Source: Gallionellaceae bacterium (GTDB taxonomy: Bacteria > Pseudomonadota > Gammaproteobacteria > Burkholderiales > Gallionellaceae). From it: DNA of 64,000 bases. A program made the translations under genes and the position numbers. This document shows, in pieces, positions 3,178 through 64,000 of the stretch. The stretch covers positions 2,875 to 66,874 of the forward strand of contig JAYUTK010000001.1 in assembly GCA_043755195.1 (NCBI GenBank), written 5' to 3'. The notes under the pieces were generated by a model, which did not search any database, was not told the origin of the DNA, and saw only the letters and a program-made list of their open reading frames with translations. Position 1 is the stretch's first letter. Each line of letters starts with the position of its first letter.

Positions 3178-4332
3178 ATGGGCACACGCCCCACAATACT
3201 CCTTGTCGAAGACGATGACTTTGCGGCCGAGTTTGTCGAGGGATTGCTATCTGCGGATTATCTCGTACATCGTTTTGCTAATGGGCGATCTGCCTTGAGT
3301 GCATTTTCAACAACCTCACCGGATTTGGTGTTGCTCGACGTTTCCATGCCCGGCCTGTCAGGTTACGATGTTTGTCGGCTGCTACGCGGTGATTCAACAT
3401 TAGGCAATCTACCAATCATTTTTCTGTCTGGCATGGTGAGTGAAAAAGAACGCTTGGCTGGATATGAGGCGGGTGGAGATGATTACCTGACCAAACCGGT
3501 AGCAGCAGGAGAATTGCGCTCCAAGATACATTTAGCGATAAATCATCGTGTCGAACGCCAGCGTCTTAAGTCAGACATCTCCAATGCCTTCACTACCGCC
3601 ATGACTGCTATGACCAGTGCCGCTGAGCTGGGAGCGGTTGTGCAGTTTTTGAGGAAAAGCATTAGTTGCCTCGATTATGTTTCGCTATGCCAGGAAATAC
3701 TGACTACTGTCAGTTCATATGGTTTAGAGGCTAGTGTGCAAATTCGCGGAAAACACAGGACAGTGTCGCGTACCGCAAACGGCCCTTGCTCGCCTCTGGA
3801 AGAATCCGTACTCAGCAATCTATCTACGCAGGGACACATATTCGAATTTGGTCTCTGCACATCTTATAATTTTGATCAAATCACCATCATTACCAAGAAT
3901 AAGCCAAACGACGACGCTGACCACCACGGGCGCATGAAGGACAACCTAGCCATATTGGCCGAAGCAGCAACATCGCGTGTGGCTACACTGGATGACCAGA
4001 TTTCTTGGACACAGCAACAGGACATTTTCAAACAACTGATTTCAAATTCGAAAACAAATTTGCCTGATATCGAGCAACAACGTCTGATGAAACAGCAACA
4101 GTTTCATGCATTATTTGAGGGTTTTTGCAGTGAACTGGAACGCCTATGCTTCAAACTTGGCTTTAATGAAATACAGCTTGAAATGGCGCAATTGATACAA
4201 AAAACATCCACGCATGCGTTTGCATTTTACGACGAAAGATTGGCAGCAGAGGAAAACCTGGAAAGCCAGCTAAAAAAAATAAATCACGTCATGACTACTA
4301 ATTCCAATCCCATTAGAAATGCCAATAATTAA
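3178..4332 (+). CDS. Response regulator: N-terminal REC plus unrecognised helical C-terminal domain
   Basis: ILLVEDDD...LLDVSMPGLSGYD...DDYLTKP receiver motifs. Confidence 0.85.
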   Translation: MGTRPTILLVEDDDFAAEFVEGLLSADYLVHRFANGRSALSAFSTTSPDLVLLDVSMPGLSGYDVCRLLRGDSTLGNLPIIFLSGMVSEKERLAGYEAGGDDYLTKPVAAGELRSKIHLAINHRVERQRLKSDISNAFTTAMTAMTSAAELGAVVQFLRKSISCLDYVSLCQEILTTVSSYGLEASVQIRGKHRTVSRTANGPCSPLEESVLSNLSTQGHIFEFGLCTSYNFDQITIITKNKPNDDADHHGRMKDNLAILAEAATSRVATLDDQISWTQQQDIFKQLISNSKTNLPDIEQQRLMKQQQFHALFEGFCSELERLCFKLGFNEIQLEMAQLIQKTSTHAFAFYDERLAAEENLESQLKKINHVMTTNSNPIRNANN

Positions 4333-4334
4333 GT

Positions 4335-4433
4335 CCGTTCGTGGTGAGCCTGTCGAACCACAGTTACCTTGTAAATACTGGCCTTCGACAAGGCCTTTAG
4401 TCTTGAGCGCAGCCGAAGGGTCAGGCCGAACGG
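4335..4433. repeat. REP-like hairpin pair (CCGTTCG...GAGCYTGTCGAA family)
   Basis: ccgttcgtggtgagcctgtcgaacc ... tcaggccgaacgg begins just after the stop codon at 4332; same family at about 9418, 40119, 42268, 62633, 63778. Confidence 0.8.
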
Positions 4434-5914: not shown

Positions 5915-6163
5915 AGTACGTTAACGCTTCTAAACATTCTTTAAAGTCACTTTCTTGCAAAAATGTCCAAACAGTCCGCAACTCAGGTGGGTGACTGTGA
6001 CCGATTACATCAAAGGGAAGATTTCTTTGTTGCACACAGTATAGTTTACTTTGAACAATCAATGAAAGCAGTAGCCTAGTCCAATGACAAGTAAGCCTGA
6101 ACGAAGGGGTGTGTTTCCAGCGCGAGATGAGCCTGGAGGAGCGAAAGTTGGGATCATGGAGGC

Positions 6164-7696: not shown

Positions 7697-9055
7697 ATGG
7701 CGAAAATAAAAACAATCTACAGTTGTACTGAATGCGGGGGACAAGTGCCAAAATGGCAAGGTCAATGTCCACATTGCACGGCGTGGAATACGCTGGTTGA
7801 AAGCATTGCAGAATCCGCCCCCAGCGGCAAAAACCGCTACAGCGCGCTGACTACAACCGGCAAGGTGCAGACCTTGGCCGAAGTGGGCGCAGAAGAAGTG
7901 CCGCGCACGCCTACGGGCATCGTCGAGTTCGACCGTGTGTTGGGCGGTGGGCTGGTCAGCGGCGGCGTGGTGTTGATCGGCGGCGATCCCGGCATAGGAA
8001 AATCCACCTTGTTGTTGCAAACGCTGGCGCATCTCTCCAGCCAACAAAAAGTGCTGTACGTAAGCGGCGAAGAATCAGCGCAACAAATCGCACTGCGCGC
8101 CAAGCGTTTAGCACTCGACGCGCGCGGCATGCACTTGCTGGCAGAAATTCAACTGGAAAAAATACAAGCAATCATCGCCCAAGAAAAGCCGGACGTGGTG
8201 GTGATTGATTCCATTCAGACCGTGTATTCCGAGCAGCTCACCTCCGCCCCCGGCTCGGTGGCGCAAGTGCGCGAATGTGCGGCGCAACTCACACGTTTGG
8301 CCAAGACCAGCGCCGTGACCATGATATTGGTCGGCCATGTCACCAAGGAAGGCACGCTAGCCGGGCCGCGTGTGTTGGAACACATCGTGGATACCGTGCT
8401 GTATTTCGAGGGTGACACGCATTCCAGTTTCCGTTTAATCCGCGCATTCAAAAATCGCTTTGGTGCAGTGAACGAGTTGGGCGTATTCGCCATGACTGAA
8501 AAAGGTCTGCGCGAAGTCAGCAACCCTTCCGCATTATTTTTATCGCAGCATGGCGCGCAAGTGCCCGGATCGTGTGTGATGGTGACACAGGAAGGCACAC
8601 GCCCCTTGCTGGTGGAAATTCAAGCCTTGCTCGATGATTCGCATTCTCCCAGCCCGCGCCGCCTGTCATTGGGTCTGGAACAAAACCGCCTGGCGATGTT
8701 GCTGGCCGTGCTGCATCGTCACGCAGGCATCGCTTGCTTTGATCAGGATGTATTCATCAATGCCGTTGGCGGCGTAAAAATCACCGAGCCGGGTGCTGAT
8801 TTGGCGGTGTTGTTGGCTATCGTGTCATCGTTACGCAACAAACCGTTGCCAGAAAAAATGGTGGTGTTTGGTGAGGTGGGTTTAGCAGGTGAAGTACGCC
8901 CGGTACAGCGCGGTCAAGAACGTCTGAAAGAAGCCGCCAAACTGGGTTTTACTCACGCCATCATCCCCAAGGCCAATGCGCCTAAGCAAAAAATCGCAGG
9001 CATGGAAATCATTGCGGTGGAACGGGTAGAAGATGCAGTGGCGAAGATGCGTTAA
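7697..9055 (+). CDS. radA: DNA repair protein RadA/Sms
   Basis: C4 zinc finger CTECG...CPHC, Walker A GDPGIGKST, KNRFG motif, Lon-like C-terminus. Confidence 0.98.
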   Translation: MAKIKTIYSCTECGGQVPKWQGQCPHCTAWNTLVESIAESAPSGKNRYSALTTTGKVQTLAEVGAEEVPRTPTGIVEFDRVLGGGLVSGGVVLIGGDPGIGKSTLLLQTLAHLSSQQKVLYVSGEESAQQIALRAKRLALDARGMHLLAEIQLEKIQAIIAQEKPDVVVIDSIQTVYSEQLTSAPGSVAQVRECAAQLTRLAKTSAVTMILVGHVTKEGTLAGPRVLEHIVDTVLYFEGDTHSSFRLIRAFKNRFGAVNELGVFAMTEKGLREVSNPSALFLSQHGAQVPGSCVMVTQEGTRPLLVEIQALLDDSHSPSPRRLSLGLEQNRLAMLLAVLHRHAGIACFDQDVFINAVGGVKITEPGADLAVLLAIVSSLRNKPLPEKMVVFGEVGLAGEVRPVQRGQERLKEAAKLGFTHAIIPKANAPKQKIAGMEIIAVERVEDAVAKMR

Positions 9056-9145
9056 ACCCAGATTTTCCATTAGCGTACGTAGCGAGGGCGATCAAGTGAT
9101 TGAAGATGTGCGAAAAAAATAAAAAATGTTCGGAGGGCGTAGCCA

Positions 9146-9292
9146 GGGTAAATTTGTTCTCCAAATAATCGTAGGGTGGGCAGACAGCTTTATCGTCTGC
9201 CCACGCGGATTGGTAACCGCGTGGGCACAAAAACGTGCCCACCCTACATTTATTGATTTTAAACATAATTACCTGGAGAACAAATTTACCGT
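9146..9292. mobile_element. Nested MITE with 17-bp IR (GGTAAATTTGTTCTCCA) and 11-bp flanking direct repeat
   Basis: IR 9147-9163 and 9274-9290; direct repeat gggcgtagcca at 9135-9145 and 9293-9303. Confidence 0.7.
9171..9247. repeat. GTAG-type REP doublet (RAYT-family-like)
   Basis: gtagggtgggca ... tgcccaccctac with internal palindromes. Confidence 0.75.
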
Positions 9293-9392
9293 GGGCGTAG
9301 CCACTCTACGTTGACAATTAGACCCAATTACGTCATTCCTGCGAAGGTGGGAATGAGGTAATTCTGCCTAATGGAAAATTAGGGTTCAACCT

Positions 9393-9504
9393 CAATGCTG
9401 TTCACTTAGGCAAATTTCCGTTCGCCCTGAGCTTGTCGAAGGGCTCCAGTTGCGAAGCTAGTGGTTCGACAAGCTCACCACGAACGGTTAAGTGAACAGC
9501 ATTG
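9393..9504. mobile_element. 112-bp MITE, 16-bp TIR CAATGCTGTTCACTTA, 10-bp target duplication
   Basis: Perfect TIRs; TSD ggttcaacct at 9383-9392 and 9505-9514; identical to the reverse complement of 40102-40214 except one indel. Confidence 0.92.
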
Positions 9505-9642
9505 GGTTCAACCTTGCATCTCCAATTTTCAGCATTCAAGGTTGTGTGATGGCAACGAATTTCTCCATCTTTCCAAATAGTGGAAGGAAATATTAGCGGC
9601 GTTTATTTCGCGCAATAAAATTAGTTCAACAGCAAAAGTCAA

Positions 9643-10359
9643 CTATGCGTGCGGTGATTCACGCGAAGCGGCGGGCATTCCATCATCAGCATCCTTCCCA
9701 GAAAACCAATTACGCCAGACTACCACCCGGTATGCGAGCAGTGCGAGCAATACAAGGATATAAGGAAGAGAACGCAGGTCACCCGGCTTGGACATCCACC
9801 ACCAATGGGCAATAGTCAACAACGCAATCAGGTAGATCAGCCGATGAATACGCCGCCAGTTGCGTTTAAGCATGCGTATCATCTCATCGGGGGAAGTGAT
9901 GGCAAGCAACGTGAGCAACGCCAAGCTGAGTACGCCCGCCACAATATACGGCTTTTCATATAGATCGTCGGCAAGCGCATCCCAATCCCAGCTTAGATCA
10001 AATTCCAAATAAACCCCAGCATGAGCAACCCCATAAAAAAAACAAACCAGACCCAACATACGCCGCATGTGTATCATAAAGTTCCAATCCGGCAGGCGTT
10101 TACCCCAGCGCCAGCCGAGTAGCCGGAACAGGCGCAGCAACATCCTGCGCCCCGGCGTAATGAACAATGTCAGAATGAGCAATATCATCGCCCAGCGACC
10201 CGTTACCCGCTCCAAGGTTTCTAGGCCGTTAACACCTAAATTTTTATTGATGTAATCCAGCGCCAAAATTATTGCAGGCAGCAGAGTCAGCATGAGCACA
10301 GCCCACCATAGCGCTCGATAGTATTGGAAGGGCCACGTTTTTAGGGGGGGGTTAAACAT
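9643..10359 (-). CDS. msrQ: Methionine sulfoxide reductase heme-binding membrane subunit (MsrQ/YedZ)
   Basis: TGRWA...RRMLGL...HAGVY...KPYIVAG...WRRIHRLIY...H ferric-reductase-like TM motifs; follows msrP. Confidence 0.9.
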   Translation of the reverse strand: MFNPPLKTWPFQYYRALWWAVLMLTLLPAIILALDYINKNLGVNGLETLERVTGRWAMILLILTLFITPGRRMLLRLFRLLGWRWGKRLPDWNFMIHMRRMLGLVCFFYGVAHAGVYLEFDLSWDWDALADDLYEKPYIVAGVLSLALLTLLAITSPDEMIRMLKRNWRRIHRLIYLIALLTIAHWWWMSKPGDLRSLPYILVLLALLAYRVVVWRNWFSGKDADDGMPAASRESPHA

Positions 10360-10416
10360 AAAGCAGCATAGATCAAGTGCTGGTATTTGTCAGCGTAATA
10401 ATCCGCATTCTACGTT

Positions 10417-16986: not shown

Positions 16987-17154
16987 GTCATTCCGGCGCA
17001 GGCAGGAATCCAGTCATAAAAAATGCACCGCGAAGCGGACAAAACTAATAGGCATCTCTAAAAATTCGTCATTCCGGCCTGGCCGAAGGCCAGTTTATCC
17101 TGAGCCGGTCGAAGGGCCGGAATGACGCAATTTTTGCTAATGAACTATCTGGGT
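16987..17154. repeat. Composite of GTCATTCC-type REP hairpins and two different MITE ends
   Basis: gtcattccggcgcaggcaggaatcc; ggcatctctaaaaattc (17051); gtcattccggc...ccggaatgac (17068-17126); gctaatgaactatctgggt abutting the coq7 stop. Confidence 0.7.
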
Positions 17155-34369: not shown

Positions 34370-34445
34370 GGGTCGTTAGCTCAGCCGGTAGAGCAGCGGA
34401 CTTTTAATCCGTTGGTCGCCAGTTCGAATCTGGCACGACCTACCA
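34370..34445 (+). tRNA. tRNA-Lys(TTT)
   Basis: 76 nt; acceptor GGGTCGT/ACGACCT, anticodon loop CTTTTAA, TTCGAAT, encoded CCA. Confidence 0.97.
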
Positions 34446-34488
34446 CAGCGTAAAAAGTTTTATCAGTCTGTTCTGCATCAGCATCATC

Positions 34489-34564
34489 GCCGCTTTAGCT
34501 CAGTTGGTAGAGCAACCGCCTTGTAAGCGGTAGGTCGTCAGTTCGAATCCGACAAGCGGCACCA
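34489..34564 (+). tRNA. tRNA-Thr(TGT)
   Basis: 76 nt; acceptor GCCGCTT/AAGCGGC, anticodon loop CTTGTAA, TTCGAAT, encoded CCA. Confidence 0.97.
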
Positions 34565-34774: not shown

Positions 34775-34792
34775 AAATTACTTTACCTTTGA

Positions 34793-34972
34793 ACCCAGAT
34801 TTTCCATTAGCATTCTACTGCGGACGCTCAATAGGCCGAATCTGCACGAAAAAAATCAAAAAATGTTCTGTCAACGTAGAATGACTACGCCCTCCGAACA
34901 TTTTTTGATTTTTTTCGCACATCTTCAACCTCTTGATCGCCCTCGCTACGAGTGCTAATGGAAAATCTGGGT
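34793..34972. mobile_element. 180-bp MITE with ACCCAGATTTTCCATTAGCA termini
   Basis: Perfect 20-bp TIRs; flanked on both sides by TGA (34790-34792, 34973-34975). Confidence 0.85.
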
Positions 34973-35101
34973 TGAAGTGGAAATAAAATGATTGGCAATA
35001 ACATCCACCTTCCCATAACAAATATGGGATTGCCCAACGTCGGGTTCTATATGCTTGCGCTCTATTTCGTGATGTTGATCCACCCTGATTAAGGAGGCTC
35101 T

Positions 35102-37227: not shown

Positions 37228-38373
37228 TTATTTCAGTCCTGAAGTGATCTTCCCAATAGCGCGCAAGTATCGCTCGATTACAATTTTTTCATCGAACTCG
37301 CGCTCCATTTTTTTTCGACCTGCAACTCCCATGCGCTCACGCTCGTCCGGGGTCATTGCGATGATGCACTCTAATTTTTCGGCCAAATCAACTGCATCGC
37401 GCACTCGGCACAACAAGCCATTCACCCCATCGTCCACCACATCACGGCATCCGACCACATCCGTTGTTACGATCGGCCTGCCCATAGCTGCCGCCTCTAA
37501 CAAAGAGCGCGGCACACCTTCGCGATAAGAAGGCAGCACCACGCAATCAGCGGCGGCTAGGTGCGGCTTAACATCAACTGCCACGCCAAGATATTCGACT
37601 ACGCCTTCCCTTACCCAATCGTCCATCTCTGTACTTGAAACTGCGGTCTGATTTTTCACATCCAAAAAACCCAGCAGTTGAAACTTTACCGTCGGATATT
37701 GACGTCGAATTATTCGTGCTGCCGCGACGTATTCCCCCACGCCCTTGTCCCACAACAAGCGCGCAACCAGCAAAAAACGAAATGGGTGACCTGGTAAAGG
37801 AGGTATCGGCACAACGCTAAAAATATTCAGATCAATGCCTGAACCCGGCAGACGGCTGATTTTGGCCGGGGAAACCAGGCCGCTTTCGACAAATAAGCGC
37901 ATATCCTCATTATTCTGAAAAAATACATGGCGCGAACGCGATAAAGCAGTCTTGTACAGCAGCCGCACCAATCGGGTAAGCCAGCTATCGCGTATAAATA
38001 CCGTCCCCAAGCCTGCGATATTATTTATCACTGGAATGCCCAACACATGGGCCGCCAAAGAACCATAAATATTAGGCTTGACGGTGTAGCCCAAAAACAC
38101 ATCGGGTTGCTCATGCTTCAGCAATTTCCAAAACCTAAAGAACAGCAACAAATCGCGTCCCGGATGCGTGCCCTGATTATCCATCGGCAGCGCAACAAAG
38201 CGGCAACCCAATGCAGCCAAGCGCGGGGCATATTCATCATTCGGCGCAAGAGCCACCACCTCATAACCTTGGGCAACCAAGGCGCGTATCAAACCCGCAC
38301 GAAAGTTGACCAGGTTCCAGGCTGTGTTGAGAGCGATCACCACCTTTAGTTTGCACAAAGGCGAGTTGTTCAT
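37228..38373 (-). CDS. GT4 glycosyltransferase (PglA/WbnH-like)
   Basis: NTAWNLVNFR, YTVKPNIYG, LPSYREGVPRSLLEAAAMG; ATG 38373 overlaps the asnB stop. Confidence 0.92.
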   Translation of the reverse strand: MNNSPLCKLKVVIALNTAWNLVNFRAGLIRALVAQGYEVVALAPNDEYAPRLAALGCRFVALPMDNQGTHPGRDLLLFFRFWKLLKHEQPDVFLGYTVKPNIYGSLAAHVLGIPVINNIAGLGTVFIRDSWLTRLVRLLYKTALSRSRHVFFQNNEDMRLFVESGLVSPAKISRLPGSGIDLNIFSVVPIPPLPGHPFRFLLVARLLWDKGVGEYVAAARIIRRQYPTVKFQLLGFLDVKNQTAVSSTEMDDWVREGVVEYLGVAVDVKPHLAAADCVVLPSYREGVPRSLLEAAAMGRPIVTTDVVGCRDVVDDGVNGLLCRVRDAVDLAEKLECIIAMTPDERERMGVAGRKKMEREFDEKIVIERYLRAIGKITSGLK

Positions 38374-40508
38374 TGCTTCTCCAACCATGCCTGAAACATC
38401 AACACATTCCACAGCTGTGCCATCCAATTGCGCTTGCCGCTTAGATGCTCAGCCCACAATTGCCGAATGGATGCCGGGTGAAAATATCCCTCGCGCTGCA
38501 AGCGCGCTTCGTCCAACAAGTCTTCCACCCAATCGCGCAATGGCCCGCGCAACCAATTGTCTAAAGGCACACCAAATCCCATCTTGGGGCGATCAATGAG
38601 TTCGCGCGGAACGTGGCGGTAAAGCACCTGGCGCAATGGCCACTTGGTTTGTCCATCGCGCAGTTTGTATTCCAGCGGCAAACTCCAGGCAAACTCGACA
38701 AGCCGGTGATCCAGAAACGGTACCCGGCTTTCAAGCGACACGCCCATCCCCGCACGATCCACCTTGACCAAAATGTCATCCGGCAAGTAGCTGATCGTAT
38801 CCAGTGCCATCATACGTTCCACATCGTTCAACCCTTCCAGCTCAGGTCGCGCTCCCATCAAGTGTGTCGGTGGTTCTTTACCGTTAATCACCCAGTCTGC
38901 CGGATTACGAAGATGCGAAACGATACCCAGGTAAAGATCATCCACTGTGCGACTTGCCAGCACCCCTGCCCCCTTGTGCAATTTATCTCCCAACGGAGAA
39001 TAGCGTGCCGCACCGGGGATGAAACGTGCCAAATCATCCCACTTTTCCGGTGCTATCGAGGTAATACCCTTCGCCATCAACGCAAGCAATGGAGCAGGCA
39101 CGAGCGCCAATTTTCGCCACAAATTTTCCGTAATCTGGTAGCGGTTATATCCGCAAAACAACTCATCCCCTGCATCACCCGACAGCGACACCGTCACATG
39201 CTGTTTAGCCAACTGGCTCACCAAAAAAGTGGGTATCTGCGATGAATCCGCAAACGGCTCGCAATACAAGCCGGGCAAACGCGGAATCACCTCCATCGCC
39301 TGCTGCGGTGACACATACAACTCGGTATGCTCCGTGCCCAAATGCCGTGCCACGGCCTTGGCGTAAACTGCCTCGTTGTAACCTGCTTCGTTGAAACCGA
39401 TGGTGAATGTTTTAACCGGACGTGAAGACTGCGCCTGCATCAAAGCCACCACCGTGCTGGAATCAATACCCCCCGACAAAAATGCGCCCAACGGCACATC
39501 CGCCATCATCTGCTGCCGCACCGCGTCCTTGGCCAAGGTTTCCAGCGCGTCCACCGCTTCATCAGCCGTGCCTGCAAATGGCTTAGTCACACCAGCGCGC
39601 GCCACCTCAACCGAATCCCAATATTTCCGAATCCTGGGCTCAGGCTGTTCCAATGAAACAGACAACAAACACCCCGGCTCCAGCTTGGCGATGCCTTGAT
39701 AAATGGAATATGGTGCGGGAATATAGTTATGACGCAATAGCAAGCAAAGTGCGCCACGGTCTATGTCTGCCGCAAAAGCAGGATGCGCCTTGAGCGCCTT
39801 AAGCTCCGAGCCAAACAAAAACACTCGCTCGTTACCCTCACCCTGCCAGCCGTAATACAGCGGCTTTTCGCCCATCCGGTCGCGCGCCAAAGTCAGCGTT
39901 TGCGTTTCACGATCCCACAAGGCAATCGCAAACATACCGATTGATTTCTTGATCGTGGCCTCCACCCCCCAAGCCTCAATCCCTGCCAGCAAAGTCTCAG
40001 TGTCCGAATGCCCGCGCCACCGAATTGCTCCCTCTCCCACCGGGGGAGGGCTGGGGAGGGGGAGATCCTCCTCCACCCCCTTTGAAAAATGGGGGCTAGG
40101 GCAATGCTGTTCACTTAACCGTTCGTGGTGAGCTTGTCGAACCACTAGCTTCGCAAGCTGGAGCCCTTCGACAAGCTCAGGGCGAACGGAAATTTGCCTA
40201 AGTGAACAGCATTGGGGGCTGGGGGGGATTTGCTCCAACTCCCCCCGCAACTCCAAATGGTTATAAATCTCCCCATTGAACGCAATCACAAACCGCCCAC
40301 TCGCTGACACCATCGGCTGATGACCCGCCGGGGACAAATCCACAATCGCCAAGCGCCGATGCCCAAGCCCAACACGCTGCTCAGCGTCGCACCAAACCCC
40401 GCCATCATCCGGCCCGCGATGAATGAGCGTATCCGCCATGCGCCGCAGCAGGACATCGTTCCCATTCTCACGAGCTAACCCACCCAAAAATCCGACCAAG
40501 CCACACAT
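38370..40508 (-). CDS. asnB: Asparagine-synthase-like glutamine amidotransferase of polysaccharide clusters, with an extra loop of about 60 aa
   Basis: MCGLVG, HRGPD, HRRLAIVDLS, NGEIYNH, SDTE, RDRMGEKPLYY, LSGGIDSS, LSGDAGDELF, KVDRAGM. Confidence 0.93.
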   Translation of the reverse strand: MCGLVGFLGGLARENGNDVLLRRMADTLIHRGPDDGGVWCDAEQRVGLGHRRLAIVDLSPAGHQPMVSASGRFVIAFNGEIYNHLELRGELEQIPPSPQCCSLRQISVRPELVEGLQLAKLVVRQAHHERLSEQHCPSPHFSKGVEEDLPLPSPPPVGEGAIRWRGHSDTETLLAGIEAWGVEATIKKSIGMFAIALWDRETQTLTLARDRMGEKPLYYGWQGEGNERVFLFGSELKALKAHPAFAADIDRGALCLLLRHNYIPAPYSIYQGIAKLEPGCLLSVSLEQPEPRIRKYWDSVEVARAGVTKPFAGTADEAVDALETLAKDAVRQQMMADVPLGAFLSGGIDSSTVVALMQAQSSRPVKTFTIGFNEAGYNEAVYAKAVARHLGTEHTELYVSPQQAMEVIPRLPGLYCEPFADSSQIPTFLVSQLAKQHVTVSLSGDAGDELFCGYNRYQITENLWRKLALVPAPLLALMAKGITSIAPEKWDDLARFIPGAARYSPLGDKLHKGAGVLASRTVDDLYLGIVSHLRNPADWVINGKEPPTHLMGARPELEGLNDVERMMALDTISYLPDDILVKVDRAGMGVSLESRVPFLDHRLVEFAWSLPLEYKLRDGQTKWPLRQVLYRHVPRELIDRPKMGFGVPLDNWLRGPLRDWVEDLLDEARLQREGYFHPASIRQLWAEHLSGKRNWMAQLWNVLMFQAWLEKQ
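40102..40214. mobile_element. 113-bp MITE inserted in frame in the asnB-like gene
   Basis: TIR caatgctgttcactta / taagtgaacagcattg; 10-bp flanks ggggctaggg and ggggctgggg; 113+10=123 nt. Confidence 0.9.
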
Positions 40509-41845
40509 CAGAGATCGCTCCTGCCGGCGTTGAGTCGGCCCACCTGCGCCATCAGACCGTCAAATATCCGCCCGGATACTGCGGTCGGGAACTCCGCCGG
40601 GAGTTCTGCCGCCACTGATTCGATCACTGCGGGTGTCATGGCGGCAATTCGCTGGATGACTGCTTCGAAATCGGATCCCAAGGCATTGGCCTTGGCCACT
40701 GCGTTCCAATGTCGGCGTTGAATCCCGGCGATCCGGTAGTGGGCATTCTTCGCGTGCAGCGCCATAGCCAGCTTCACTTTCTGCCACTGAAACTCGCGAG
40801 CACCCTTTCCAATTACCGGCCAAGCCGACATCACATCGTAGAGCGGCGTGAGCCAAAAGCGACCCTGTGATCCGATAAAAACACTGAAATTTTTGGCGTG
40901 CCCATCGGGAGCAGCGAGCATCCAAAATACAAGCTGAGCCGTCATAAAATTCGTGCGGTCAGATTCGGCATTGTCGCTGCCACGCAATGTGTTAAGGATG
41001 GCCGCGATACCGGGCCCACCCTGCTCTTCATACTTACGTTCCGGCGGCAATCCTGACACCTGGCAAAAATCTTCCTGCGGCAAACGAGCCCACCAGCCGT
41101 TGATGAGGCGGCGGTCAAACCGCGTGACCGCCAACACCTTGTGCCGGCCAAACATCCCATAAGAACAATCCGCGACCGGAAGACCATAAGCACGTACTAA
41201 CTTAGCGCAAAGCCATTCATTCTCGACCGAGGTAGAAAAATCGGCGCGCATTCCACCCACCTCGCCCAACGGCAGCTTCAGAATATGCGTAGTGGGTGTT
41301 GTCCCGCGCGGCCGGCACCATTGATCGTTGTGCCAGAGCAGCGCGGTCTTTTCCTGCGCCCCGGCAATGGAAATTCGCAGCTCATCTTCTTCAGGCACAC
41401 CGATGTTCCGATTGCTTACTGTGTCATCGAGAATTCTTTCGACATCAGATTCGGAGAGTGGCTCGGCATCAATTCGTCGAACATCAGGAGCCGGGCTACC
41501 ACTGGGCAGAAGTTGCAGAGCGCCAACACAATCACGACCAATTTTTTCGAGCAGTTGAAATGCCTGGGTAGAGTCGGTGCCGAATTTGGATGCCAAGCGC
41601 TTGCGGATGCCCTGGCTGTCGGGAAGTAAGTTATCGAAGTAGGACTCGACGATACTCCCTGAAAACGGAGCTGTCCCTTGGGAGAGCGGCAGCGAAAGGG
41701 ATAGTGGCCGCCCCTGCGGATTGTCAAGCCAAGATGAATCGTAGGAAAAGGAATGGCCGCCTGCCGAGGTAAACGTCCAATGGCCGACGAACTCGCCGTT
41801 CATCCAAATATCCAGCACCTTTCTGGATGACGGACGCCCAGCCAT
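40508..41845 (-). CDS. hipA: HipA-family kinase toxin (with N-terminal couple domain)
   Basis: SIAGAQEK, HILKLP, DGHAKNFS, LTPLYDV; start overlaps the hipB stop, stop overlaps the asnB start. Confidence 0.95.
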   Translation of the reverse strand: MAGRPSSRKVLDIWMNGEFVGHWTFTSAGGHSFSYDSSWLDNPQGRPLSLSLPLSQGTAPFSGSIVESYFDNLLPDSQGIRKRLASKFGTDSTQAFQLLEKIGRDCVGALQLLPSGSPAPDVRRIDAEPLSESDVERILDDTVSNRNIGVPEEDELRISIAGAQEKTALLWHNDQWCRPRGTTPTTHILKLPLGEVGGMRADFSTSVENEWLCAKLVRAYGLPVADCSYGMFGRHKVLAVTRFDRRLINGWWARLPQEDFCQVSGLPPERKYEEQGGPGIAAILNTLRGSDNAESDRTNFMTAQLVFWMLAAPDGHAKNFSVFIGSQGRFWLTPLYDVMSAWPVIGKGAREFQWQKVKLAMALHAKNAHYRIAGIQRRHWNAVAKANALGSDFEAVIQRIAAMTPAVIESVAAELPAEFPTAVSGRIFDGLMAQVGRLNAGRSDL

Positions 41846-42135
41846 TACCAAGGCTCCCGAGGTTTCATCTTTTGACTTCCTGAGGCAACCTTTTTTTCCG
41901 CTGCCTTCACCGCAAGGGAATTCCGTGGCTCAACCTGAAGTTCGGCATCCAGCGCCATCAGCACAGTAAGAAGTTGGTCTATGGACATCCTCTCAGGATG
42001 ATTTTCTATCACCGAGATACGCTCCTGGGACAAGCCTATCTTCTGGCCCAGATCAATTTGCGACCAACCCTTGGCCTTCCTTAATTGCTTAAGGATGGGG
42101 CCCAACTGGCCTGTGGTGCGAACATTGTTAGCCAT
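41845..42135 (-). CDS. hipB: HipB-like XRE-HTH antitoxin
   Basis: LKQLRKAKGWSQIDLGQKIGLSQERISVIE. Confidence 0.9.
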   Translation of the reverse strand: MANNVRTTGQLGPILKQLRKAKGWSQIDLGQKIGLSQERISVIENHPERMSIDQLLTVLMALDAELQVEPRNSLAVKAAEKKVASGSQKMKPREPW

Positions 42136-42215: not shown

Positions 42216-42267
42216 TAATTCCATTTCTTATTTATTCCAATTCCATTTTGAAATGCCAATAATCAAG

Positions 42268-42300
42268 TCCGTTCGTGGTGAGCCTGTCGAACCACAGTTA
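42268..42300. repeat. REP-like half element
   Basis: gtccgttcgtggtgagcctgtcgaaccacagttacc, shared with the copy at about 4333-4370. Confidence 0.7.
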
Positions 42301-42543
42301 CCTTGACACACAGTTATCTTGTAATTCCATTTCCAGTTAAATCCGGCGACAATTCCCTCCCCTTGAAGGGGAAGGTGTAGTGGCGTTAAATTCGCCAGAT
42401 TACAGTGCCAAATGCCGCGCAAATTAGTACCAAATGCGTCGCGGCGTTACAGGCGCGAGAAAAATTTTAGCGCGCCGCATATGTTTGATATGTAAGCGTT
42501 AAAATTTTTGGAACAACGCAGCATCGCGACGGAGTTTGGATTT

Positions 42544-42790
42544 TTAGAGGTGCCCTAATGCCGCAACAATTTGTTTCACTGCTGCCTCCGGCGAAAACAG
42601 CTTGGCCGACAAGGTACGGCAATGGGCGGACACATTTTTTCCAGAGCTAATCTCGTCTGCAAGTTCCCGCGCCAGACGCTGCAAGGTATCAACCGAGTGA
42701 TCCGTGCAGACTCGCCCAACACCTTCTGTTCGTATCAACGCTGCCAGATCATTGCTTGGATTAATGCTCCCCAGCACAGGCAAGCCGGCC
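42544..42790 (-). pseudogene. 3' remnant of a WbuB-like GT4 gene (copy B)
   Basis: YMQAGLPVLGSINPSNDLAALIRTEGVGRVCTDHSVDTLQRLA; closely matches about 44020-44260. Confidence 0.85.
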
Positions 42791-42839
42791 TGCATATATA
42801 AGCTTGCAATTACGGGAACAGGAATCCATAATTGCAAGC

Positions 42840-44018
42840 ATGATAAATCGCTTTCTTTACACCAAGCTATCAGACGCAATCTCACGATCGCCTGCGGTAG
42901 CTTTGATTGGCCCGCGGCAAGTCGGAAAAACCACGCTGGCGCTGGAAGTCGGCAAAAACCATAATGCGCTCTACCTCGATCTCGAATCCGAACAAGATCG
43001 CGCCAAGCTCGCCGAACCGGAGCTATATCTTGCTGACCACCAAGACAAACTGATCATCCTGGATGAAATTCACCGCGCGCCCAATCTCTTTCCGGTTTTG
43101 CGAGGCCTGATAGACCAAGGGCGACGTGCTGGCCGTAAAACCGGCCAATACCTGTTGCTCGGCTCTGCCTCCCTTGACCTGCTCAAGCAATCCGGCGAAA
43201 CATTGGCAGGGCGCATCGCCTACCTGGAACTCGCTCCGTTCAACCTATTGGAAACACAAGCACTACCATCGGATGACCTCTGGGTACGAGGTGGTTTTCC
43301 GGAAAGTCTGCTGGCCGCCAGTGCAACCTGGAGCCTGCGCTGGCGGCAGGATTTCATTCGCACCTATCTCGAACGCGACATCCCTCAGTTTGGACCGCGC
43401 ATAGCCGCCGAAACCCTGCGACGCTTCTGGGGTATGCTCGCCCACTATCAGGGCGGCCTGCTCAACACTGCCCAGTTTGCCCGCAATCTGGGTGTGGATG
43501 CCAAAACCGCTGCAAGTTATCTCGATTTACTCGTTGACCTGCTGCTGGTGCGGCGCCTGCCACCATGGCACGCCAATCTGGGCAAGCGGTTGGTCAAATC
43601 GCCCAAGGTGTATGTACGCGACAGCGGCTTGGTACATGCCCTGCTCAACATTCCCGACAAGGAAACCCTGCTTGCCCACCCAGTCGTGGGACAAAGCTGG
43701 GAATGCTTCATAATCGAAAACCTGATCACCTCCGCACCGGATGGTGTGCAAGCGTATTTCTATCGCAGCAACGGCGGCGCCGAGGTTGATCTGCTACTGG
43801 CTTGGCCAAGCGGAGAACTCTGGGCCATCGAAATCAAACGCAGCCTCACCCCCAAGCTGGAACGCGGCTTTCACGCTGCCTGCACCGACCTCAACCCAAC
43901 CCGCAAGTTTGTCGTTTATCCAGGCACGGAACGCTACCGCATCGCAGCAGACATCGAAGCGATTTCCCCGGCCTGCTTGGCCCTGGAATTAAATCCAGCT
44001 ATTAGGGTGCTGCAATAA
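42840..44018 (+). CDS. AAA_14/DUF4143 ATP-binding protein
   Basis: LIGPRQVGKTTL, ILDEIH, LLGSAS, RGGFPE, KRLVKSPKVYVRDSG, EVDLL...AIEIK. Confidence 0.92.
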   Translation: MINRFLYTKLSDAISRSPAVALIGPRQVGKTTLALEVGKNHNALYLDLESEQDRAKLAEPELYLADHQDKLIILDEIHRAPNLFPVLRGLIDQGRRAGRKTGQYLLLGSASLDLLKQSGETLAGRIAYLELAPFNLLETQALPSDDLWVRGGFPESLLAASATWSLRWRQDFIRTYLERDIPQFGPRIAAETLRRFWGMLAHYQGGLLNTAQFARNLGVDAKTAASYLDLLVDLLLVRRLPPWHANLGKRLVKSPKVYVRDSGLVHALLNIPDKETLLAHPVVGQSWECFIIENLITSAPDGVQAYFYRSNGGAEVDLLLAWPSGELWAIEIKRSLTPKLERGFHAACTDLNPTRKFVVYPGTERYRIAADIEAISPACLALELNPAIRVLQ

Positions 44019-44400
44019 GCCCGCTGCAATTTGTTTTACTGCCGCCGCTGGCGAAAACAGCTTTGCCGACAAGGCACGGCAACGGGCGGATACACTTTTT
44101 CCAGATCTAATCTCGTCTGCAAGTTCCACCACCAGACGCTGCAAGGTATCCACCGAGTGATCCGTGCAGACTCGCCCAACACCTTCTGTTCGTATCAACG
44201 CTGCCAGATCATTGCCCGGATTGATGCTCGCCAGCACGGGCAAGCCTGATTGCATATACGAAAGGAACTTGCCGGGTATGCTGTGGGTTTTGTGGCGCGG
44301 ATCGAGCGCAACAATGCCCACATGGCACTGGCACTGGGCATATAAACCGGGAATTTCCGCAGGATCGATCTCGTCATGGAATACCACGTTATCCAGCGGG
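43989..44400 (-). pseudogene. 3' remnant of a WbuB-like GT4 gene (copy A)
   Basis: HVGIVALDPRHKTHSIPGKFLSYMQSGLPVLASINPGND; 5' part missing, break at a REP half. Confidence 0.85.
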
Positions 44401-62564: not shown

Positions 62565-62608
62565 TTTTTATCTTTCCAAGCTTCTATTATTAAACTCACG
62601 TCATGCCC

Positions 62609-62728
62609 CAATACTGTTCGCTTAGCACCTATCCGTTCGCCCTGAGCTTGTCGAAGGGGGTATGAATTGGCGGCTGGTGGTTCGACAAGCTCACCACGAA
62701 CGGTTAAGCAGTTAAGCGAACAGTATTA
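62609..62728. mobile_element. 120-bp MITE variant (TIR CAATACTGTTCGCTTA)
   Basis: TIR caatactgttcgctta / taagcgaacagtatta; 10-bp flanks cgtcatgccc and cgtcatgctc; same REP-pair interior. Confidence 0.85.
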
Positions 62729-63745: not shown

Positions 63746-64000
63746 TCAACTTTCAATTTTTTGAGGAAGAAGTAAATCCGTTCGTCCTGAGCCTGTCGAA
63801 GGATGGGCGAATTTACTGTTCGCCAAGCGAGAAACTTCCGACCAGTCGCCACGCATCATGGCCTCTTTTTTCTTGCGGCTCCAGCCCTTGATTTGCATCT
63901 CGGCGGACAAGGCTTCTTCTCGTGTGACACATTCCTGCGACCAAGCAAGCACCACCGGACGACGCGTTGCAGTATAACCCTCGCATTCCCCGGCCTGGTA
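63746..64000 (-). CDS. GIY-YIG nuclease (YhbQ/UPF0213-like), 5'-partial
   Basis: GYTATRRPVVLAWSQ...REEALSAEMQIKGWSRKKKEAM; C-terminal HPSTGSGRT encoded by the REP-like repeat. Confidence 0.88.
   Translation of the reverse strand, partial: YQAGECEGYTATRRPVVLAWSQECVTREEALSAEMQIKGWSRKKKEAMMRGDWSEVSRLANSKFAHPSTGSGRTDLLLPQKIES

Follow-up and report, generated by a model that had tools for sequence, protein, structure and literature searches.

How can a conserved enzyme gene take up a stack of mobile repeats within its catalytic domain and still be read through from end to end? The question is raised by an AsnB-type (class II, N-terminal Cys) glutamine amidotransferase gene (38370-40508, minus strand, 712 aa), located in a 64-kb stretch of Gallionellaceae DNA (the window) from a 67-kb sediment metagenome contig (ENA k141_1021849). 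Codons 93-163 of the gene form a 213-nt insert (40020-40232, minus strand) between the helix ...HLELRGELE and the sequence WRGHSDTE. The insert consists of a hairpin (hairpin A), a 113-nt MITE (miniature inverted-repeat transposable element) nested in the 5' arm of A, and a second hairpin (hairpin B), all read in frame. The explanation considered probable is serial colonisation, in which selfish elements entered an unusually tolerant loop one after another and would have been filtered for an open frame while the enzyme was still made and probably remained active.

Anatomy of the insert

The insert was delimited by alignment, by a split in the glutaminase-domain match, and by low confidence in a predicted structure. 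It places 71 residues where the solved homologue 7ylz has 5 and most relatives have 3-7 between the same anchors, and the net gain from the three nested elements is 64 residues. Family profiles step from position ~93 to 94 across the insert, and the PF13537/GATase match is broken by it into two stretches. A first-pass annotation of the window had proposed about 60 extra residues between ELRGELE and WRGHSD, in agreement with these measurements.

On the coding strand (the minus strand of the window), the insert begins with the 5' tail and arm of hairpin A (CAAATCCCCCCCAGCCCC, 40215-40232), which matches the widespread unit AAATCCCCCCnnCCCCCCTTTnnnAAAGGGGGG of other genomes and which ends in 10 nt (40215-40224) that form the left copy of the duplicated MITE target. 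The MITE (40102-40214, placed by the sequence and by junction unitigs) is a near-perfect palindrome with 16-nt terminal inverted repeats (TIRs) CAATGCTGTTCACTTA and encodes QCCSLRQISVRPELVEGLQLAKLVVRQAHHERLSEQH. The remainder of hairpin A (CCCTAGCCCCCATTTTTCAAAGGGGGTGGAGGAGGAT, 40065-40101) opens with the right copy of the duplication (its first 10 coding-strand nt, 40092-40101), and hairpin B (CTCCCCCTCCCCAGCCCTCCCCCGGTGGGAGAGGGAGCAATTCGG, 40020-40064, encoding LPLPSPPPVGEGAIR) completes the insert. The MITE is thus flanked by CCCCAGCCCC / CCCTAGCCCC, a 10-bp duplication agreeing at 9 of 10 positions; a 113-bp MITE with a 10-bp duplication had been proposed for this gene and was found at these coordinates. 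The predicted tryptic peptides crossing the insert are QISVRPELVEGLQLAK, LSEQHCPSPHFSK, and GVEEDLPLPSPPPVGEGAIR.

Hairpins A and B are short GC-rich imperfect palindromes of 45 nt each, with folding energies of -21 and -20 kcal/mol. Both had initially been described as hairpin repeats; the hairpin folds stood up, whereas neither element has a second copy within the window. Their status as repeats rests on copies in other genomes and on raised k-mer depth in the source metagenomes, which relative to the flanking gene was 5-30x for hairpin B and about 3x for hairpin A. The core of hairpin A, CCCCCHTTTNNNAAAGGGGG, was present in at least 120 loci across many phyla, often in several copies per 8 kb, and the extended unit elsewhere is AAATCCCCCCnnCCCCCCTTTnnnAAAGGGGGGnnGGGGGGATTT, some copies being near-identical to that of the window. 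The ends of both hairpins, as read from the sequence, do not carry GTAG or CGTC tags, and an Rfam search (gathering threshold and E<=1) gave no family for the insert, the sole matches being two tRNAs elsewhere in the window. The unit AAATCCCCCCnnCCCCCCTTTnnnAAAGGGGGGnnGGGGGGATTT was also seen in near-identical form in Desulfobacterota, Nitrospirota, Beta- and Gammaproteobacteria, Chloroflexota, and others (loci L176-L295); to our knowledge, there is neither a named family for this unit nor an explanation for its spread across phyla.

The miniature element and its copies

Three MITE copies are present in the window, two of them near-identical. The intergenic sister of the in-gene copy (112 nt at 9393-9504, plus strand; 9383-9514 with its perfect 10-bp duplication GGTTCAACCT) was compared directly with it, and the sole difference is a single C in the middle of the palindrome (CCAGTTGCG versus CCAGCTTGCG), which the sister does not have; the description of the copy at 9393 as identical but one base shorter was therefore accurate. 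Because the two copies are one base apart, the insertion into the gene is recent. The surrounding DNA (6.5-15.6 kb of the window) is 91-96% identical to a Gallionellaceae metagenome-assembled genome (MAG; loci L007 and L008), and L008 carries the orthologous copy of the 9393 element. A third, divergent copy was read from the sequence at about 62607-62728 (plus strand; TIR CAATACTGTTCGCTTA, flanks ACGTCATGC; repeat families D2/D4 and I5/I7).

Assignment to a MITE family was based on TIRs conserved in 16 copies from 10 genomes, on target duplications of fixed length (9-10 bp) that differ in sequence at most copies, and on small size (102-124 nt) and multiple copies without a transposase. The hosts are Gallionella, Candidatus Tenderia, Pseudomonas, Chromatiaceae, and Usitatibacteraceae. 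Within the lineage of the window, 112 nt is the commoner length (9393, L004, and the orthologous L008 copy). Neither the loci retrieved nor a plasmid search showed an autonomous insertion sequence (IS) sharing the TIRs.

The MITE core, in all three copies, is an inverted dimer of a 27-nt motif, CCGTTCG(NNN)TGAGCYTGTCGAA(NNN), which also occurs singly at 4335-4361, 42269-42295, 17083-17116, and 63770-63803 (intergenic). The NNN triplets co-vary (CCC/GGG versus TGG/CCA), and the motif translates as PFVVSLSNHE / VRPELVEG / FDKLRANG. It is contained in a 73-nt repeat present at 4299-4371 and 42233-42305 (89% identical). A further palindromic family (inverted matches I1, I4, I6, I8, and I9; up to 75 nt, 91%) occupies 9052-9316, adjoining the 9393 MITE, and 34782-34983, just downstream of two tRNA genes (34370-34561).

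Reading-frame arithmetic

The 113-nt MITE is free of stop codons in one of the six combinations of frame and orientation, which is the one used in the gene. When the 112-nt form was put in its place, the product ended prematurely (...LQLRS*), as the first-pass annotation had predicted in stating that an element of the sister's length would shift the frame. Its further proposal, that a frame-preserving variant had been kept, agrees at the sequence level with these results, since the frame used is the only open one and the commoner form in the lineage truncates the protein. Hairpin A is open in five of six frames and hairpin B in all six, so that only length matters for these two elements. Under serial colonisation, the surviving MITE copy would be one that combined the sole stop-free frame with the one-base-longer, frame-keeping length.

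The same arithmetic bears on an unlikely alternative, in which the gene was inactivated or became dispensable once the MITE had landed, the open frame being luck and the reading frame not yet having decayed. A one-in-six chance of an open frame, together with a frame-keeping length as against the 112-nt local master, gives a joint chance of roughly 0.06 or less. All 80 genome loci compared are in frame, with no broken loop among them, and inserts of 34-70 aa persist in intact orthologues. What inactivation has in its favour is the age of the insertion, as a MITE one base off its sister leaves almost no time for decay, along with absent expression support and the frequent remodelling of polysaccharide clusters; the present cluster is already interrupted by a hipBA module and an AAA_14/DUF4143 gene (described below).

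Order of insertion in relatives

The stages of the stack were recovered separately in related genes. Hairpin A alone is present in loci L297, L099, and L102 (...EQIPPSPPFSKGGILEWRGH). Locus L301 holds an intact 674-aa gene, 86% identical to the window protein, in which hairpins A and B form a 34-aa loop at the same place and A is uninterrupted, constituting an empty MITE site (KELGRIPHSPPLAKGVQEDFPHPNPPRMGEGAIR); the 3' arm of hairpin B is also matched base for base in L100. The order A, then A+B, then MITE follows from this series, which ends with A(MITE)+B in the window. Counted by eye, the A+B loops of the window and L301 are about 63% identical, compared with 86% for the whole protein, a difference that suggests relaxed constraint and would make the loop a weakly constrained passenger, long carried in intact genes. 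A pre-MITE allele was not found in other metagenome runs, which gave only other loop variants within the same anchors, and the A-B junction, looked for as an exact string in JGI metagenomes, returned no match; the empty site in L301 came from a protein-guided search.

The events proposed are as follows. Hairpin A, belonging to a family of many bacterial phyla, would have landed first in the loop DNA, and the GC-rich hairpin B, unrelated to A, would have landed beside it. Very recently, a DDE-type transposase would have moved the 113-nt MITE into the 5' arm of A, duplicating 10 bp. The loop would point away from the conserved core and take almost any length, and for that reason insertions would be filtered for reading frame and stop codons only. 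The most likely product, judged from the sequence, is a full-length, still active enzyme bearing a 71-residue disordered excursion.

Recurrent inserts in the same loop

Enlarged loops at exactly this place were found in 75 of the 120 nearest homologues (73-89% identity). Because a query from which the insert had been deleted returned essentially the same neighbours, the excess does not reflect query bias. The GTDB genomes gave about 72 loops, 21 of them enlarged; this total includes 10 of the 13 that share 79% identity or more with the query and are not truncated by a contig end. The insert-free base state dominates in more distant relatives, with enlarged loops in 3 of 77, and 26 of 71 JGI metagenome loci have an enlarged loop.

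At least five unrelated types of DNA element are translated within this loop, each of which folds into a hairpin at the DNA level. They comprise hairpin A (translated IPPSPPFSKGG); types of hairpin B (PLPxPLPxGEG, LTLALSPEGRGNE); an element GGATTGC...GCAATGAC, in up to three copies, translated DCRASLAMT or GLLRYARND; the element GGATTCAGGATTC, translated GFRIQDSGF; and a 27-nt tandem unit in 1, 3, or 4 copies, translated SAEHKNQVL. Further nested pieces are present in L300. Insert types and base-state sequences are intermingled in a tree from which the loop was left out, and no other hairpin-type indel site was found in the roughly 650-aa protein. The loop had been proposed to be permissive, and this is strongly supported by a range of 3 to about 70 residues in intact homologues, by the 34-aa A+B version in the L301 gene, and by low predicted confidence within the insert between well-predicted flanks (values below).

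Three side observations were made on these loops. The SAEHKNQVL unit is present in 1, 4, and 3 copies in L312, L313, and L314, whose genes are otherwise near-identical, which constitutes in-frame copy-number variation. In L098, two AsnB-like paralogues of one polysaccharide cluster (5989-6084 and 10265-10360) carry the same 32-aa GLLRYARND...EGRxxP insert in the same loop. In L118, L160, and P0095 (Polaromonas/Rhodoferax-type), a GGATTGCCGCGC...CTCGCAAT element overlaps native helix codons (HLDCRAALAMT) with loop length unchanged, and it looks as if this element replaced native sequence rather than adding to it.

The reuse of one site allows two further explanations. In the first, the hairpin stack is kept for a role, whether as messenger RNA (mRNA) structure tuning processing or translation within the operon, as a DNA site actively targeted by palindrome-seeking elements, or as useful loop variation. 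Points in favour of such a role are that elements of at least five unrelated types are gathered at a single site and absent from the remainder of the protein, that the copy number of the 27-nt tandem unit varies (1, 3, or 4), and that the loop hairpin of most loci is the sole copy within the 6-16 kb flanks. These points are set against the dominance of the insert-free state in more distant relatives, loop sequences that decay and change more quickly than the remaining protein (examples being IPTNSTLAKGRI and the window compared with L301), and negative scans for a promoter or terminator consensus and for an Rfam family; the recombination gradient, moreover, lies in codons 1-60 and not at the loop. 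A selected role is accordingly regarded as quite improbable. In the second explanation, the loop DNA is an actively targeted landing pad, and not just a tolerant site, whose pre-existing hairpin draws palindrome-seeking repeats, the MITE, and slippage-prone tandems and might in addition play a part in mRNA processing; this is a tentative and fairly unlikely idea.

The loop was also considered as a recombination breakpoint, and this was rejected, as the reduced DNA identity is found in codons 1-60 and has recovered ahead of the loop. Pairwise distances for the first 88 residues did not correlate with those for the rest of the protein (r=-0.02; control windows 0.14-0.55). The first ~60 codons are mosaic, with a DNA identity of ~50-70% at the 5' end that has climbed to ~90% ahead of the loop, which suggests that exchange of the 5' end of the gene accompanies exchange of the variable stretch of the polysaccharide cluster upstream of it.

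Integrity of the enzyme and reliability of the assembly

The catalytic motifs are present and invariant in the alignment: Cys2 (MCG...), N78-G79-E80, S168-D169-T-E, and the S345-G-G-I-D-S PP-loop; the roles assigned to these residues follow PMC4659947. In E. coli AsnB, Asn74-Gly75-Glu76 and Asp98 position glutamine (PMC4659947), and the insert lies between the equivalents of these residues, Asn78-Gly79-Glu80 and Asp169. A single change private to the window protein falls in columns that are invariant in the other sequences, equal to the family median of 1. In an AlphaFold2 model, the predicted local distance difference test (pLDDT) was ~27-32 within the insert and 75-90 in the flanking strand, helix, and following sheet. 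From the intact motifs and open frame we infer that the gene is still functional.

Several results weigh against serial colonisation with retained activity. The AlphaFold2 model as a whole is poor (mean pLDDT 52; template modelling score 0.4-0.5 to 7ylz and 1ct9) because the alignment was shallow (>=76% identity), and it was used for its local confidence pattern only; exposure of the loop at the surface is accordingly suggested by natural length variation. No transcript, peptide, or activity support for the 712-aa protein was found, the RNA runs having given only an unrelated marine metatranscriptome sharing 5% of words. The insert could form an mRNA hairpin of roughly -100 kcal/mol, and so strong a structure could lower expression. 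Given how recently the MITE arrived, the gene would still appear intact even if dead. To these are added the single occurrence of hairpins A and B in the window, mentioned above, and the extra C at the palindrome centre, which is in no Logan contig.

The last point is shared with another alternative, an assembly artefact in which the collapse of repeat copies would have produced the extra base or put the MITE in this gene. The MITE core is high-copy in the samples (depth hundreds to thousands), and Logan contigs break at the palindrome centre; the sole contig crossing it (run X3) is of the 112-nt type, as expected from the copy at 9393, and runs X1, X2, and X4 gave neither type. Both gene-MITE junctions are nevertheless crossed by unitigs at genome depth in two runs (X1 and X2), the contig was assembled at k=141, which exceeds the length of the element, and an identical 712-aa product is encoded on three contigs. 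The duplicated target is, moreover, an ordinary part of hairpin A according to the empty site in L301. Such an artefact is very improbable.

Gene family and cluster context

The amidotransferase gene was assigned from its reading frame, profile matches, solved relatives, and neighbours. The protein exceeds the curated threshold of TIGR01536 (asparagine synthase, glutamine-hydrolysing; 444.6 bits vs 267.1) and matches PF00733 (Asn_synthase, 414 bits), GATase_7 (PF13537, 130 bits), and GATase_6; its closest solved relatives are TsnB9 (7ylz), human ASNS (6gq3), and E. coli AsnB (1ct9). The neighbouring genes encode GT4 glycosyltransferases and a WecA-like transferase of a polysaccharide cluster. 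In domain architecture and neighbourhood (GT4, WecA-like), the protein resembles the AsnB-like amidotransferases of O-antigen and exopolysaccharide clusters, such as those of the WbpS type and the XrtA/PEP-CTERM amidotransferase of model TIGR03108. Its score against TIGR03108 is below the cut-off of that model (556 bits vs 816.9). Amidation of lipopolysaccharide is a reasonable guess at its role, given the gene context.

Directly upstream lies a hipA-hipB (helix-turn-helix) toxin-antitoxin pair (40508-42135, minus strand), the hipA stop codon overlapping the amidotransferase start codon; the same arrangement recurs in a Gammaproteobacteria MAG (locus L096). Farther along, an AAA_14/DUF4143 ATPase gene (42804-44018) is bracketed by two 248-nt direct repeats (42551-42798 and 44011-44258; 89% identical), and gene and repeats together look like a module inserted into the polysaccharide cluster.

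Comparison with known systems

The amidotransferase works like known in-frame insertions of palindromes and MITEs and is a well-resolved addition to them. Rickettsia palindromic elements are carried in frame by protein genes (Ogata et al. 2000/2002; Claverie & Ogata 2003; as summarised in PMC10969869 and PMC3733652). The likeness is that of a non-autonomous palindromic repeat of ~100-150 nt read as an extra peptide in an otherwise conserved enzyme, presumably within a loop at the surface and with function retained; this resemblance is a functional one. The differences are that the present host is a free-living Gallionellaceae bacterium and not an obligate intracellular one, and that the MITE has classic TIRs and a 10-bp target duplication and is nested in an older hairpin repeat.

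Intragenic repetitive extragenic palindromes (REPs) and REP clusters are GC-rich palindromes inside reading frames that encode 20-82 residues, argued to form flexible loops (Di Nocera et al. 2013, PMC3733652). GC-rich palindromes within a reading frame, alone or clustered, are common to both cases. In contrast to those REPs, hairpins A and B do not have the GTAG/CGTC tags that define the superfamilies (PMC3733652), the host gene is a sugar-pathway amidotransferase and not a replication or repair gene, and unrelated elements have used one codon-level site repeatedly in different orthologues.

In-frame fusions are known from bacterial MITEs such as ERIC, BOX, and Anabaena MITEs (PMC10969869, PMC3184786), and insertion of IS elements and MITEs into REP palindromes was reported by Tobes & Pareja 2006, as cited in PMC10969869 and PMC3184786. 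The present element shares with these the TIRs, target duplication, multiple copies without a transposase, translational fusion, and insertion into a pre-existing palindromic repeat; it differs in that its core is a dimer of a 27-nt repeat also found singly in the window (4335, 42269, 17083, and 63770) and in that the insertion lies inside a catalytic domain. In the literature searched, there was no description of one orthologous loop reused by several unrelated repeat families, or of three-level nesting with the intermediates preserved in relatives.

Significance for the family

For annotation, peptides such as IPPSPPFSKGG, PLPxPLPxGEG, DCRASLAMT/LLRYARND, and VRPELVEG/VRQAHHER in predicted proteins should be treated as translated repeats. 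The locus also extends protein-coding palindromes from Rickettsia and a few other genomes to free-living bacteria of the iron-oxidiser type. It documents how selfish DNA lengthens a protein without breaking it, step by step, from a hairpin to a two-hairpin stack to a MITE within a hairpin, with the intermediates in relatives. The AsnB-type loop, in which 3 to about 70 residues of practically any sequence are tolerated, is a natural insertion-tolerant site and offers a test bed for telling targeting from tolerance in repeat insertion. Were the loop DNA indeed a targeted landing pad, it would amount to a self-renewing hypervariable cassette in a conserved enzyme across Gallionellaceae, Nitrosomonadales, Methylococcaceae, and others.

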